Shown in pieces: positions 17,193 to 51,028 of a stretch of 64,000 nucleotides of DNA; within the stretch, counting starts at the first letter, position 1; every line of letters begins with the position of its first letter. Origin of the DNA: Escherichia coli (lineage in GTDB: Bacteria; Pseudomonadota; Gammaproteobacteria; Enterobacterales; Enterobacteriaceae); assembly GCF_013315695.1 (NCBI RefSeq), contig NZ_CP054353.1, one strand, 5' to 3'. A program made the position numbers and the translations under genes. The notes beneath the pieces were generated by a model. That model was not told the origin of the DNA, searched no databases, and worked only from the letters and a program-made list of their open reading frames with translations.

Positions 17193-18242
17193 TTACATCA
17201 ATGGCTTTTGACCCCGCTGCCACCAGCGTAACAACAATCGATCGGCGCTCTCTGCCGCGCTGCCGGTGAATCGGTCAATGAGTCGTTTACGTTGCATATA
17301 GCGTACATTGACCACTTCACGGCCTTCCATCAGGCTAAGAATAACTTCATCACTGGTGTTGATTTCATCAACCAGGCCTTTCTCTACCGCCTGTTGTCCG
17401 TACCAGTGTTCACCCGTTGCCACCTGTTCAATATCCAGAGACGGACGCATACGCTTCACAAAATCTTTAAATAACTGATGCGTTTCGTTCAGCTCTTCGC
17501 GGAATTTCTCCCGCCCTTCTTCGGTGTTTTCACCCAGCAAGGTCAGCGTGCGCTTATACTGCCCGGCGGTGTGCAGTTCGATATCAATATCTTTGCTTTT
17601 CAGGAAGCGGTTAAAGTTGGGCATTTGTGCCACCACGCCAATGGAACCCACAATAGCAAACGGTGCGGAAACAATTTTGTCCGCCACACAGGCCATCATG
17701 TAACCGCCGCTGGCAGCGACTTTGTCTACCGTAACAGTTAAAGGAATGTTTTTATCACGCAGACGCTGCAGCTGCGAAGCCGCCAACCCGTAACCATGCA
17801 CCATGCCACCAGGGCTTTCCAGACGGAGCACAACCTGATCCTGCGGTTTGAATGCTGCGAGTACCGCCGTTATCTCTTCACGTAGCGAGTTCACTTCATG
17901 GGCGTCCATGCTGCCTTTAAAATCCAGCACCCAGACGCGAGGTTTACTGTCAGTTGCCATCTCGCCCAGTTTGGCTTTCGCTTTTGCTGCTTTCGCTTCT
18001 TGCTTGTGCTTTTTCTTCTGCGCTTTGTGCCACTGTTTTTGCTGATGTGAGTCCATCAGCGCCGCGGCCAGTTCTTCTTTCATCTCCTTATACTGTTCGC
18101 TGAGATTGTTGACCCGTAACTCGCCACGCTGGCGTTTATTACGTTGAGCAACATTGACTATAATGGCGGCAATCGCCGCAATCGCTAGCACAACGGTAAC
18201 GATTTTCGCCAAAAACAAACCATATTCAGACAACAATTCCAC
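17193..18242 (-). CDS. sohB: S49-family periplasmic protease SohB
   Basis: 349-aa ORF with N-terminal TM segment and ClpP/SppA-like domain. Confidence 0.9.
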   Translation of the reverse strand: MELLSEYGLFLAKIVTVVLAIAAIAAIIVNVAQRNKRQRGELRVNNLSEQYKEMKEELAAALMDSHQQKQWHKAQKKKHKQEAKAAKAKAKLGEMATDSKPRVWVLDFKGSMDAHEVNSLREEITAVLAAFKPQDQVVLRLESPGGMVHGYGLAASQLQRLRDKNIPLTVTVDKVAASGGYMMACVADKIVSAPFAIVGSIGVVAQMPNFNRFLKSKDIDIELHTAGQYKRTLTLLGENTEEGREKFREELNETHQLFKDFVKRMRPSLDIEQVATGEHWYGQQAVEKGLVDEINTSDEVILSLMEGREVVNVRYMQRKRLIDRFTGSAAESADRLLLRWWQRGQKPLM

Positions 18243-34976: not shown

Positions 34977-35252
34977 GTGGCTTCTGTTTCTATCAGCTGT
35001 CCCTCCTGTTCAGCTACTGACGGGGTGGTGCGTAACGGCAAAAGCACCGCCGGACATCAGCGCTATCTCTGCTCTCACTGCCGTAAAACATGGCAACTGC
35101 AGTTCACTTACACCGCTTCTCAACCCGGTACGCACCAGAAAATCATTGATATGGCCATGAATGGCGTTGGATGCCGGGCAACAGCCCGCATTATGGGCGT
35201 TGGCCTCAACACGATTTTACGTCACTTAAAAAACTCAGGCCGCAGTCGGTAA
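34977..35252 (+). CDS. insA: IS1 InsA
   Basis: Identical translation to copy 1. Confidence 0.95.
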
Positions 35253-35674
35253 CCTCGCGCATACAGCCGGGCAGTGACGTCATCGTCTGCGCGGAAATGG
35301 ACGAACAGTGGGGCTATGTCGGGGCTAAATCGCGCCAGCGCTGGCTGTTTTACGCGTATGACAGGCTCCGGAAGACGGTTGTTGCGCACGTATTCGGTGA
35401 ACGCACTATGGCGACGCTGGGGCGTCTTATGAGCCTGCTGTCACCCTTTGACGTGGTGATATGGATGACGGATGGCTGGCCGCTGTATGAATCCCGCCTG
35501 AAGGGAAAGCTGCACGTAATCAGCAAGCGATATACGCAGCGAATTGAGCGGCATAACCTGAATCTGAGGCAGCACCTGGCACGGCTGGGACGGAAGTCGC
35601 TGTCGTTCTCAAAATCGGTGGAGCTGCATGACAAAGTCATCGGGCATTATCTGAACATAAAACACTATCAATAA
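35171..35674 (+). CDS. insB: IS1 InsB
   Basis: Identical translation to copy 1. Confidence 0.9.
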
Positions 35675-47208: not shown

Positions 47209-47979
47209 TCACTTTTCCGATACAACACGGCGGGAAGAATCAGTAATCTGTCGAACAATATCCCGGTGCTTGTTCAGCTCCCGCAGCGCGGCGCAGACTC
47301 GCTCCCACTTCTGAACATCACTTTTCGCCCTGCGCAGCGCCAGGTTTGCCCTGCGAAGGGACGGAAAAATCAGCTCATCTGCTTGCGTTTCGGTAAACGA
47401 TGGCAACGGCTGCACAATGTCCGCCACAGTTTCTGTTTTAATTTCTTCCTGTGTTGCGGCTTCCCGGACTGGTAACGCAGCACCTGCTGGCTGAGGAAAG
47501 GCCTTACCATCACTTTCCGTTACCAGCGCGGCTTTCGGCTCTGCTGGTAAATTATCGCCCGGCATGCAGTAACGAAATTTACCGTTCTGATTAACGCGTG
47601 CCAGCCGCCCCGTTGCGGTTACCACCGCCAGCGTGGAAGCAACCTTGCGAGTACTGACACCGAACTTACCCGCCAGTTCCTCACACGTTTTAGCCCCATC
47701 CTGACCGATAAACTCAATCATCATGTCTGCGGTAACTTTTTGTTCGACCTCCCCGGTCAGCATATCCTGTGCTTCAGATTTTACTGGCCGCTCTTCGGTT
47801 ACCCGGGATTCACCTTCGCCAGCCAGAAACCAGGTGTGACCAGTTTTATCAACGACGCCTTTTCTTTTGAGTTCCCACAGCTCGTTGACAGCCTCTTCAC
47901 GACTGATTCCAAGGCGAGCTGCCACCACATGTGAAGAGGCTTTTTTCAGTGCTTTCAGTGCGTCAGATACGGTTTCCAT
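47209..47979 (-). CDS. hypothetical phage protein with putative winged-helix segment
   Basis: 256-aa ORF immediately downstream of DnaC-like gene. Confidence 0.5.
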   Translation of the reverse strand: METVSDALKALKKASSHVVAARLGISREEAVNELWELKRKGVVDKTGHTWFLAGEGESRVTEERPVKSEAQDMLTGEVEQKVTADMMIEFIGQDGAKTCEELAGKFGVSTRKVASTLAVVTATGRLARVNQNGKFRYCMPGDNLPAEPKAALVTESDGKAFPQPAGAALPVREAATQEEIKTETVADIVQPLPSFTETQADELIFPSLRRANLALRRAKSDVQKWERVCAALRELNKHRDIVRQITDSSRRVVSEK

Positions 47980-48000
47980 TAAAATTTCCTCCGGACAAAA

Positions 48001-48747
48001 TTACTTCACAACCCTCATATTGCTGACATTTGGACGCCAGCTATCCCAGTTAAACGTCACCCATCGACCACCGTTCATGGTCATGCGGTCCATAATCCTC
48101 TCACCAAGAAGCGTACTCATTGCGGCATGATTCAGGTTTGTTAACATCCCGACACTGCACAGTGATGCTGTCCGGCGATCAATTATCTGGTGCAATACCA
48201 CCTGCTCGTTTTTCGTCTCCCGCTGAACGCCTATTTCATCCAGGACCAGCAAATCAACCCCGCAAAGCTCCTGTAAAAATTTTTCCCCGGATTTGCCGTT
48301 GTCGTAGCTGTCATGCAACACGCTCATGACGTCAGACACGGTGACGATAATCACGCTGCGCCCCTTCACCATCAGCCGGTTGCCCATCGCCGCTGCAAGG
48401 TGATTTTTCCCGGTGCCGGTTTTACCGCTGAACACAAAATTCGTGCACCCGGTCATCAGTTCGTCAGCTATGGATTTGGCCTGGCTCAGCGCGTATTTTT
48501 GCCCGTCGTTCTGCACCTGATAATTTGCAAACGAGCATTTGCTGTGCAGAGGCTGGATGCCCGAACGATTCAGGATTTTTTCCACCCGCAACTGGCGATT
48601 CTGGCGGTTAATCTCCTCGCTGCGTTTTCGTCCTTCAGCAAGTTGCCATTCCCGCCACTCCTCCACCGTCCGGTACGGTGGAACCGACCCCTGTGGTGCA
48701 AGTCTGCGAATACGTTCAAGACCCCCAACTGCCGCAATGTTTTTCAT
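48001..48747 (-). CDS. DnaC/IstB-like replication ATPase (helicase loader)
   Basis: 248-aa ORF with Walker A GKTGTGKNHLAAA and Walker B LLVLDEIG. Confidence 0.85.
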   Translation of the reverse strand: MKNIAAVGGLERIRRLAPQGSVPPYRTVEEWREWQLAEGRKRSEEINRQNRQLRVEKILNRSGIQPLHSKCSFANYQVQNDGQKYALSQAKSIADELMTGCTNFVFSGKTGTGKNHLAAAMGNRLMVKGRSVIIVTVSDVMSVLHDSYDNGKSGEKFLQELCGVDLLVLDEIGVQRETKNEQVVLHQIIDRRTASLCSVGMLTNLNHAAMSTLLGERIMDRMTMNGGRWVTFNWDSWRPNVSNMRVVK

Positions 48748-48753
48748 GACACG

Positions 48754-49731
48754 TCACCCCCTGAATCCCGGCGGTATTTCAGTGTCCGGTTCAGAAATGT
48801 GATTCACGCAACGCTGCGCAGGCGAACGCCCCAGGCGGATAACCAGTTCATCCCATTTTTCCCGGAGTTTTGCCGGACTCATGATGTTTTTTACCCAGAA
48901 CGAATCCCGCTGGAGACGCCCAAACATTTCACAAATTTGTCTGTGAGTTCTGCCATCCAGCATCCGCATTGTGCGAACGTCATTGGCCCATGCTGTCCAG
49001 TTGGGTTCTTTCGGTCTAGTGATCTCGCCATCATAGCTGGCCGCCTGCTCGTAAAGACTCACGATTCGTCCCCAGATCCACTGTGCGCACACCAAATCTT
49101 CCTGACTTCCCCACTGGCGTTTTTTCGCACTGAACACAACCGCGTCAGGGTGTCGGGTTAAAAAATCCTGTTCAGCCGTCTGCGGGTCCGGTTGCGAAGC
49201 GTCCGGACAAGAAGATCTTTTATCTGACGGATCAGGTTTTAATACTGACGGATCGGGGTCAATCATCGCCCCCCTAATCGGCAGTTTTTTATCAACAGTT
49301 GATCCATCAAAATTTGACGGGTCAACCGTTGAGGGGTCAATATTTGACGGGTCAACTGTTAACGGGTCATTTTTTGCCGGGCTAATTTTTCTTTTCGGTT
49401 TATATGACTCACGCGCCGCCGCCGCAGCTGCTTCGAGTTTTTCCACATTAAGCCGATAGATATTGCTTACATTACGCCCACCGACCTTACGCTCTTCCTT
49501 CGTCAGCCAGCCCTCTTTCGCCAGTTCTGCAATAGCCGATTTCACTGTGGATTCACTTCTTGCACCGATCTGACGCCGGATAGTTTCAATGGCAGGCCAT
49601 GACACGCCCTCGTCATTGCTGTAGTCTGCAAGACGGGCCATAACCGCCACCCTGGATAAGATCATGCCGGTGAAGGCGCACCCTTCCCAGACAAGACCAT
49701 GAAGCTTGCTGCTCATAAAACCCCCGAACAC
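48754..49731 (-). CDS. replication initiator (lambda O / YdaU-like) with internal origin iterons
   Basis: 325-aa ORF; N-terminal HTH region; repeated DPSNIDPSTVDPSNFDGSTVD peptide encoded by DNA iterons. Confidence 0.75.
   Translation of the reverse strand: MFGGFMSSKLHGLVWEGCAFTGMILSRVAVMARLADYSNDEGVSWPAIETIRRQIGARSESTVKSAIAELAKEGWLTKEERKVGGRNVSNIYRLNVEKLEAAAAAARESYKPKRKISPAKNDPLTVDPSNIDPSTVDPSNFDGSTVDKKLPIRGAMIDPDPSVLKPDPSDKRSSCPDASQPDPQTAEQDFLTRHPDAVVFSAKKRQWGSQEDLVCAQWIWGRIVSLYEQAASYDGEITRPKEPNWTAWANDVRTMRMLDGRTHRQICEMFGRLQRDSFWVKNIMSPAKLREKWDELVIRLGRSPAQRCVNHISEPDTEIPPGFRG
49299..49373. repeat. origin-like iterons (five ~15-bp direct repeats, ttgacgggtcaac-type) inside the O-like gene
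   Basis: ttgatccatcaaaat / ttgacgggtcaaccg / ttgaggggtcaatat / ttgacgggtcaactg / ttaacgggtcatttt. Confidence 0.7.
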
Positions 49732-49738
49732 CGTGCTT

Positions 49739-50164
49739 TTAGTGCATCACCACAGCATTCCCTGCCGGGCCGCCGCGATTCATCTGGTCATACAAAACAA
49801 CCGCTGACGCAACAAAATCATCGACATCCTTCACCAGCCGATCCCTCCGTTCGACGATCTCACGGTAATATTCAGAACTGTGGCTGCGCATACGGGCCAC
49901 CAGCAAAGGCGGCATCGCCTTTTCGATCGCCGGTAACAGAGCCTGCATTTTTTCAACAGCATCAGGGGGGGCTTTCTCTACCCAGCGGAAAATTTTCTGG
50001 GTATTGCGAGCCAGGGCTTCCGGATGGCTGTCGTCATACAGTTCCGGGAACGTCATACCCAACTCAAAATAAGCCTGGGTTATTCCAGCTGCTGGAACTT
50101 TTTCGCCATCAGGACGCGCCCAGGCATTCATCGCCATGCGGATGTGTTCATGCTTGATTTTCAT
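49739..50164 (-). CDS. YdaT-like protein (cII-position gene)
   Basis: 141-aa ORF beginning MKIKHEHI…, as remembered for Rac YdaT. Confidence 0.65.
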   Translation of the reverse strand: MKIKHEHIRMAMNAWARPDGEKVPAAGITQAYFELGMTFPELYDDSHPEALARNTQKIFRWVEKAPPDAVEKMQALLPAIEKAMPPLLVARMRSHSSEYYREIVERRDRLVKDVDDFVASAVVLYDQMNRGGPAGNAVVMH

Positions 50165-50429
50165 GAATCAAGCTCCTAGAAAGTGGTTGTGTTAACGTTT
50201 TGGTATCTTCCAGCTCGGGCCAAATATTCATCCAATCAAAAGGCCTTAGTTGCTGACGTGTAACTTCACCATTACTGGCTCGCTCAATAAGGACACATAA
50301 CGATGCCCCTAACACTTGACCTTTACTCAATGCCTTTCTTAGATAACCGATGCTGGTACCACACTCGCATGCAAACATACGCTGTTCATCTGACGAAAGA
50401 GAATTGAGAAATATTCTTAATTCTTCCAT
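50148..50429 (-). CDS. Cro-like/YdaS-family HTH regulator
   Basis: 93-aa ORF with HTH (ECGTSIGYLRKALSKGQ) and YdaS-like C-terminus (QQLRPFDWMNIWPEL); divergent from repressor gene. Confidence 0.7.
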   Translation of the reverse strand: MEELRIFLNSLSSDEQRMFACECGTSIGYLRKALSKGQVLGASLCVLIERASNGEVTRQQLRPFDWMNIWPELEDTKTLTQPLSRSLIHENQA

Positions 50430-50456
50430 AGCTACTCCTTAGTAAACACAGCAAAG

Positions 50457-50493
50457 AATACCCACAGGTAAACAAAAGCCAATACCCACAGGT
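50457..50493. promoter_or_regulatory. right operator region (two aatacccacaggt sites within gtaaacaa/ttgtttac inverted repeat)
   Basis: Repeated 13-mers at 50457..50469 and 50481..50493 in the 100-bp divergent intergenic region. Confidence 0.6.
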
Positions 50494-50529
50494 TGTTTAC
50501 CTTGCGGTAATCGCATCTATTATTTACCT

Positions 50530-50949
50530 ATGGACAAATATGAATTTAGACGACAGCAACTCATCAAAATTCGTGATGAGAAATGCGATGGTAAAGCGGT
50601 TAACGTGGCCAGAAAGATCGGGCGCGAGCCTTCTTATGTATCAAGAATGTTGTACCCAGAGGGGAAAAAGGGAAAAAAACGGATCGCTGATGATATGGTG
50701 GAGATTATCGAAGAGTCCTTTGGGTTACCCCGGGGATGGATGGATGGTATCGTTTCATCATCAACGAACACAGCCTCCAGTTATGAAACAAGGGTTCTAA
50801 CGCCACGACAACGTATTTTTTTAGATCTCTTAGACGAACTGCCAGAAAGTGAAGCGGATAAATTATTAAAAACTCTTGAAGAGAAAAAACAGTATTACAA
50901 TATGATCTACGAAGAAATCCGTAAAAAGAAAGCACAAAACGCATCATAG
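50530..50949 (+). CDS. prophage repressor, RacR-like (HTH, no S24 peptidase domain)
   Basis: 139-aa ORF with HTH (AVNVARKIGREPSYVSRMLY); divergent from cro-like gene. Confidence 0.7.
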   Translation: MDKYEFRRQQLIKIRDEKCDGKAVNVARKIGREPSYVSRMLYPEGKKGKKRIADDMVEIIEESFGLPRGWMDGIVSSSTNTASSYETRVLTPRQRIFLDLLDELPESEADKLLKTLEEKKQYYNMIYEEIRKKKAQNAS

Positions 50950-50989
50950 CTCACCAAACAACTAGTCACCAGTTAAGACACCGCAAAAT

Positions 50990-51028
50990 TTACCCATGGG
51001 TATTTACTTTTTAAATACCTATGGGTAT
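50990..51028. promoter_or_regulatory. left operator-like palindromes (tacccatgggta, atacctatgggtat)
   Basis: Palindromes sharing the accca.(g)ggt core with the right operator, just upstream of the leftward early operon. Confidence 0.5.

Follow-up and report, generated by a model that had tools for sequence, protein, structure and literature searches.

Replication initiators of lambdoid phages that carry family-specific iterons inside their own coding region are textbook knowledge. A 64,000-nucleotide stretch of an Escherichia coli chromosome (NZ_CP054353.1; hereafter the window) contains a prophage remnant whose O-like initiator gene includes a short tandem array, and the question raised by this locus was whether the array acts as DNA in a replication origin or only encodes a repetitive piece of protein. 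On the basis of sequence comparison and of analogy with the origin of phage lambda (oriLambda), the probability that the array forms the core of a replication origin of the lambda type, embedded in its initiator gene and with family-specific iterons, was put at roughly 0.8. The five repeats would very probably be the binding sites (iterons) of the lambda-O-like initiator. Coordinates are those of the window, and features lie on the minus strand unless the plus strand is named.

The repeat array and the initiator gene

The array consisted of five 15-bp units arranged head to tail at 49299-49373, inside the initiator gene. Tandem Repeats Finder reported a period of 15 with 5.2 copies at 49292-49390, together with an alternate period-30 reading (score 101), and the motif TTGACGGGTCAA, with at most two mismatches, was found at 49299, 49314, 49329, 49344, and 49359, a spacing of exactly 15 bp. 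Each unit (GTT GAC CCG TCA Axx on the coding strand) contained an imperfect palindrome with the arms TTGAC and GTCAA around a 2-bp centre, TTGAC-NN-GTCAA. This dyad was an addition to the preliminary description of the locus, which had not mentioned a palindrome. That description had reported five 15-bp direct repeats encoding a repetitive DPSxxD-type peptide, and both were recovered, the repeats by Tandem Repeats Finder and the motif scan and the peptide by minus-strand translation of the units (xxT GAC CCG TCA xxx), which gave NDPLT VDPSN IDPST VDPSN FDGST VD. A sixth unit, degenerate in sequence (TTGCCGGGCTAA on the plus strand), was located at 49374-49388, where it graded into a moderately A+T-rich stretch at 49370-49409. 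Outside the array, TTGACGGGTCAA at the same mismatch limit matched only once more in the window, at 18109. The chance expectation was 5.8 strand-matches per 64 kb, or ~0.007 per 72 bp, and the probability of five adjacent sites was ~1e-13 (a Poisson estimate from the window-wide expectation). With so low an expectation, chance clustering of the five sites was therefore excluded.

The gene carrying the array (48754-49716) encodes 320 aa from the annotated ATG and its product is identical to RefSeq WP_000095673.1; the open frame reaches upstream to a GTG at 49731. In RefSeq the protein is labelled only 'helix-turn-helix domain-containing protein', and no origin is marked. An N-terminal winged-helix DNA-binding domain (residues 1-105; 49402-49716) was recognized from Pfam HTH_36 and an AlphaFold model, and a C-terminal domain (residues about 178-299; 48820-49185), homologous to the C-domain of lambda O, from tblastn, PHROG, and the model. 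The sole Pfam match was HTH_36 at residues 30-76. By tblastn, residues 158-305 aligned with the C-terminal half of lambda O (35% identity, E = 1e-18), and the C-terminal part also aligned with many 'replication protein O' genes. Moreover, the full-length protein matched PHROG 391, 'replication initiation O-like', with E = 2e-115, as well as PHROG 277, which is also O-like. These matches to lambda O and PHROG 391 bore out the earlier assignment of the host gene as an O-like initiator.

The AlphaFold model, built on 106 sequences, comprised a winged helix (residues 1-105), a disordered stretch (109-173; predicted local distance difference test score, pLDDT, <50), a helical part (178-300), and a disordered tail. 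The array (codons 114-139) and the GATC-headed boxes discussed below (codons 155-168) were both located inside the disordered stretch, so the peptide would be free to follow the DNA. In Foldseek searches against the Protein Data Bank (PDB), the N-domain resembled dimeric MarR/PadR/AbfR2 winged-helix proteins; the E-values were weak and the fold was consistent. Such a dimeric likeness would suit dyad-symmetric sites. No specific structural homologue could be claimed for the N-domain, as the PDB matches were generic winged-helix ones with E of 3e-3 or worse.

The layout resembled that of oriLambda in several respects. In lambda O, codons ~116-145 contain the iterons and codons ~145-160 the A+T-rich tract; the window iterons were found at codons 114-139. 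In both, direct repeats with internal dyads lie midway along the initiator gene, where they separate the DNA-binding N-domain from a homologous C-domain, and an A+T-rich element, modest and more distant in the window, follows on the 3' side. In both, the loader gene is directly downstream, and the module belongs to a rightward operon past cro/cII-like genes. The ori-in-O arrangement proposed earlier was upheld by this lambda-like codon position and by the retention of the array as DNA in nine clusters of relatives, as described below. Iterons within the initiator gene are on record for lambda, P22, and L, each with a set of its own (PMC8022706; PMC7466680). For P22 and L, origins with distinct iterons were predicted in gene 18, which encodes distantly related O-like initiators; in phage L, this gene contains six imprecise repeats of 11 bp (PMC8022706). 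As here, those origins were predicted from sequence only (Zaworski et al. 2020, PMC8022706). Their repeats and N-domains differ from those of the window, and the partner in those systems is the DnaB-type helicase gp12, where the window prophage has a DnaC-type loader.

Conservation of the sites among related initiators

Relatives were collected from phage records (SKA5, SfII, VIT_AJPSC, LLS, Eeyore, YeP1, phiP27 L17, EKP1, and Klebsiella Kp4866-6 and Kp4872-1) and from two further scans of viral contigs. The set contained 165 genes with 46 unique N-domains, which formed nine clusters at 85% identity; the hosts of these phages and prophages were E. coli, Shigella, Klebsiella, and Yersinia. Directly after the N-domain, all nine clusters had a period-15 array, with 2.3-7.5 copies. 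Two or three GATC-headed A+T-rich direct repeats were likewise present in 9/9 clusters, 30-60 bp downstream of the array; one example was GATCCACAAGTAAATTCAAAACAT (period 24, 2.4 copies), and other lineages had periods of 21, 18, or 12. The initiators of PHROG 391/11896 (SfII, SKA5, LLS, Eeyore, YeP1, phiP27 L17, Kp4866-6, and Kp4872-1) belonged to the same N-domain family, with 52-72% identity, and carried the array at the equivalent position as well as the GATC boxes; no origin was annotated in any of them.

The array consensus was TCTGA(C/A)nn(G/T)TCA(A/G)A(A/T) in most clades and TTGAnnnnTCAA in the window and Kp4866-6 clades. At the level of the core, TTGA...TCAA in the window and Kp4866-6 lineages stood against CTGA...TCAR in the others, and the TTGAC...GTCAA units of the window thus differed from those of most PHROG 391/11896 initiators. 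In addition, an isolated iteron half-site (ATTGACCCC on the coding strand; 49255-49266) was recognized by sequence comparison just ahead of the first GATC box, and may be the counterpart of the lone TTT(G/C)ACCC(G/T)(T/C)CAGAATCTGG copy of other lineages. A more distant O-like gene, that of Edwardsiella phage GF-2, contained 2.8 perfect copies of the 24-bp AATGATCCCAAAATTGGGATTTTG (L006 2741-2807), with a lambda-like dyad and at the equivalent gene position.

Alternatively, the array might have no role as DNA and might only encode a low-complexity protein linker, (DPSxx)n, that is prone to slippage; the origin would then lie elsewhere or not exist at all. The modelled disorder of residues 109-173 (pLDDT <50) fits a linker of this kind, as do the several amino-acid substitutions tolerated within units and the in-frame variation in copy number among alleles, which slippage predicts. 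Codon usage was at odds with this explanation. In nine cluster representatives, the arrays were compared with the rest of the same genes. Serine was encoded by TCA (42) and TCT (32) in 74 of 83 array codons, against 46/166 elsewhere (Fisher p = 3e-8, TCA only), and the GAC:GAT ratio of aspartate was 34:12 in the arrays against 44:68 elsewhere (Fisher p = 1e-4). Over the lineages, the final two DP[S/Q] tripeptides used GAT 17 times and GAC once, whereas the earlier ones used GAC and GAT in the ratio 11:4; the GATC boxes thus encoded aspartate by GAT, and the arrays mostly by GAC. This comparison was defined from the protein only; it replaced a test on the Asp codons of the boxes, which was circular since the boxes had been located by GATCC. 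In the 15-nt unit, T3 and A12, both at third-codon positions, carried 1.2 and 0.9 bits, respectively, and the central codon ~0.3 bits throughout, values that are approximate because phasing by serine periodicity mis-phased two lineages (L114 and L123).

As a control, conserved N-domain residues shared their codon in 40% of lineage pairs (serine, 31%), so synonymous sites were near saturation between lineages. The peptides DPSNI, SDPSK, SEPSE, and FEGSK were found, by lineage, over the common DNA core TGA-N4-TCA. Since different peptides were encoded over one core and codon usage was skewed, selection was concluded to act on the DNA dyad and not on the peptide. Position-specific codon usage was thus kept in spite of near-saturated synonymous sites, and the dyad persisted while the encoded peptide varied. 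Moreover, no other tandem repeat scoring >=50 was found between 35000 and 57500, the array being the sole one in the prophage remnant. A linker without DNA function was accordingly regarded as very improbable.

The N-domain, array, and GATC boxes were joined to at least four kinds of C-domain (lambda-O-like, Phg_2220_C, and two others), with the recombination joint just past the GATC boxes. Because they were joined to differing C-domains, these three elements behaved as one exchangeable module. Several of the phages carrying it had no DnaC-like gene beside the initiator. Near-identical E. coli alleles in viral contigs had 5, 4, or 3 units, always in frame, and the window allele, with five, represented the commonest form; in one allele (L067), an in-frame 21-bp deletion removed one GATC box. 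Initiator-like sequence was present in ~3,260 of 5,426 complete E. coli genomes, 1,513 of which held at least 80% of the gene. A literature search for TGACCCGTCA and its variants returned only unrelated primer and eukaryotic matches and no phage-context paper, and in the literature on oriJ, SfV, and iterons no description of this iteron family or origin type was found.

The GATC-headed repeats and the DnaT-like tail

The candidate DNA-unwinding element, at 49213-49254 (codons 155-168), was made up of two A+T-rich direct repeats of 21 bp, GATCCGTCAGTATTAAAACCT and GATCCGTCAGATAAAAGATCT, each headed by GATC. They contributed three GATC (Dam) sites within ~40 bp, and three or more such sites within 45 nt occurred at only two places in the window, 49213-49254 among them. 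The second cluster was located at about 57650, near the ompW/yciC boundary and outside the prophage. In the nearest-neighbour stability profile, 49210-49249 (65% A+T) ranked in the top 7.5% of 40-bp windows for instability and 49370-49409 (68% A+T) in the top 10%. The profiles thus showed moderately unstable stretches on both flanks, and no strong A+T-rich unwinding element abutting the array. The adjacent A+T-rich region expected in the preliminary description was therefore recovered in a weak form: a conserved GATC-headed direct repeat was present, but its A+T content was modest (65%) and it lay ~45 bp off. The E. coli origin oriC carries GATC-initiated 13-mers, of which the repeats are reminiscent. 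A DnaA-box-like TTTTCCACA at 49439-49447, 65 bp from the array, was treated as a chance occurrence; none of the eight other lineages had it, and the codons used for NVEK are probably enough to account for it. Scans of 47900-51000 found no promoters or terminators within the origin.

Several observations weigh against an origin of the lambda type or set the predicted origin apart from that of lambda. The flanking stretches are only moderately unstable, and the candidate unwinding element lies ~45 bp from the last full iteron, whereas in lambda it abuts the array; it is also a GATC-headed direct repeat and less A+T-rich than that of lambda. The iteron TTGAC-NN-GTCAA is unrelated to ATCCCTCAAAACGAGGGAT of lambda, and five or six units with a 15-bp period compare with four of about 22-24 bp. 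The 15-bp spacing would put neighbouring dimers on nearly opposite faces of the helix, unlike in lambda, and the higher-order complex may therefore differ from that of lambda. The N-domain, judged by its Pfam match to HTH_36, is not the Phage_rep_O domain of lambda O, and the loader is DnaC/IstB-like instead of lambda P. Furthermore, because the units of an array evolve in concert, their counts are inflated and they are not independent, so that the p-values given above are optimistic. Likewise, the covariation of N-domain and iteron, as read from the sequences, is one clade-level change, i.e., a single evolutionary event.

Some of these differences would also fit sites that are purely regulatory, with the initiator acting on them in autorepression, as a transcription roadblock, in titration, or in handcuffing, and initiation taking place at another site. 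Iterons also serve copy-number control in plasmids, the DNA around the array is modestly A+T-rich, and the spacing is unlike that of lambda. However, the conserved GATC-headed A+T-rich repeats were always 3' of the array, as for an unwinding element, the geometry matched that of oriLambda, and neither a second repeat cluster nor a strongly A+T-rich stretch between genes was found in the replication module. Purely regulatory sites were hence considered improbable, and the origin remained the preferred explanation.

Unlike lambda O, the window initiator ended in a DnaT-like tail. Its last 21 residues, AQRCVNHISEPDTEIPPGFRG (48757-48819), matched the extreme C-terminus of E. coli DnaT (PDB 2ru8, 6aep, and 9zbt) with E = 4e-4 for a 49-residue query. 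The IPxGFRG tail also ends K-12 YdaU and was found in the SfII, LLS, Eeyore, and Kp4866-6 initiators, which carry other C-domains; it was present even in family members without an adjacent DnaC gene. The mode of DnaB/DnaC recruitment by DnaT itself is not yet understood (PMC13377028). The tail shared with DnaT suggests a common contact, and one may speculate that it is a DnaB/DnaC-recruiting peptide. More broadly, the HTH_36 O-like family might use a bipartite origin in which unwinding repeats resembling the GATC-initiated 13-mers of oriC are gated by Dam/SeqA and in which DnaB-DnaC is recruited via a copied DnaT tail. This proposal, made by analogy, is tentative and would more probably fail than hold. 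If true, a host replication-restart interface would have been borrowed instead of a lambda-P-type loader, which would point to the function of the DnaT tail.

The prophage remnant and its possible activity

The remnant occupies ~35675-56990, about 21 kb, at ompW in the E. coli chromosome. In the annotation of the near-identical strain MSB1_4I (locus coordinate + 27499 = window coordinate), the trp operon, yciG, yciF, a yciE fragment, and IS1 precede the lambdoid prophage. Its genes follow in the order lysis genes, Q, RusA, DUF977, DUF1627, ATP-binding protein, 'HTH protein', YdaT-like, Cro-like, repressor, dicB, exonuclease, xis, and int, then ompW. Terminase, portal, head, and tail genes were lacking, and one end (attachment site) was lost; IS1, at 34977-35674, adjoins the lysis genes on one side and the truncated yciE on the other. 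A related prophage at the same ompW site in CE10 retains terminase and portal. The earlier statement that the prophage cannot form virions was supported by the missing head, tail, and packaging genes and by the cut at IS1. Normal excision is also unlikely, because IS1 removed one prophage end.

Within the replication module, a DnaC/IstB-like helicase-loader gene (48001-48747) starts 6 bp past the initiator stop codon; it is of the DnaC type, not the lambda P type, and its product is 80% identical to YdaV of the K-12 Rac prophage. Upstream of the initiator, in the same rightward-type operon, YdaT-like and YdaS/Cro-like genes (49739-50429) were identified from open reading frames, Pfam, and annotation, and transcription from their side would run through the predicted origin. 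A putative prophage repressor gene (50530-50949, plus strand), recognized from open reading frames and annotation, is divergent from them. Between the repressor and Cro-like genes, at 50456-50512, exact 13-bp direct repeats AATACCCACAGGT were found at 50457 and 50481 with an inverted partner at 50493-50512; these are likely operators.

The gene order agreed with that of K-12 Rac (racR / ydaS / ydaT / initiator / DnaC-like loader / DUF1627). The 80% identity between the loader and YdaV extended over 248 aa, and the initiator and YdaU ended in the same tail, IPPGFRG. The N-domain of YdaU is DUF1376, in place of the HTH_36 of the window initiator, and the two proteins aligned only over their last 19 residues. 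No period-15 array was found in K-12 ydaU, and the window prophage is at ompW, not at the Rac site. Of the two reference origins named in the preliminary description, lambda was consequently retained, for the C-domain of O, the position, and the layout, and Rac was rejected, as YdaU shares only the C-terminal tail and its repeats differ. Separately, ydaU of the K-12 MG1655 Rac prophage (L007 4472-4635) was seen to have its own CAGATGTTCAA-type repeats, i.e., (A/T)ARCAGRTGTTCAA, as four direct copies with spacings of 33, 33, and 12 bp and one inverted copy, followed by an A+T-rich stretch with two GATC sites. Their sequence is unrelated to the window iterons, and they are a candidate core of oriJ. 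They would fit the general rule of one iteron family for one N-domain family.

How the origin would work can be outlined by analogy with oriLambda, from which iteron binding, strand opening, loading of the helicase, and present-day activity in the strain are all inferred. On derepression, the rightward operon would be transcribed. Dimers of the O-like protein would then bind, via the N-terminal winged helix, the five or six dyad iterons in their own gene. The nucleoprotein complex, together with transcription from a promoter on the Cro/YdaT side, would open the GATC-headed repeats at 49213-49254, after which the lambda-O-like C-domain and the DnaT-like tail would recruit host DnaB with the prophage DnaC-like loader. 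Such firing would amplify the locus in situ and would not make phage, because the morphogenesis genes and one end are gone.

A further explanation is that the array descends from an origin but has fallen silent in this strain, the remnant never being derepressed or a required partner being absent. This was assessed separately from the linker and regulatory explanations, and was held to be a real, though unlikely, possibility. The truncation by IS1 and the loss of the morphogenesis genes and one attachment site are in line with a relic. Furthermore, one study observed no replication of K-12 Rac after infection with lambda (PMC3945230), and prophage Sp4 of E. coli O157 Sakai, which has a DnaC-type loader, was amplified only passively (PMC2669165). 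Against this, the initiator allele was 100% identical in more than 1,000 complete genomes, including that of the terminase- and portal-bearing CE10 prophage. In addition, the initiator, loader, Cro-like, YdaT-like, and repressor frames were all open, and the array had its commonest, five-unit form.

As a concept, an origin of this kind is already covered by the lambda paradigm; the arrangement is the classical one, and only the GATC-headed repeats and the DnaT-like tail could lead to something new. With its presence in so many complete genomes, the initiator is among the commonest prophage replication modules in E. coli. A known origin would make it possible to predict which defective prophages still amplify themselves and their neighbours (here trp and ompW-tonB) after SOS induction, and to interpret local copy-number peaks in sequencing data. 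It may also be of use in the design of incompatibility or ori-titration tools.

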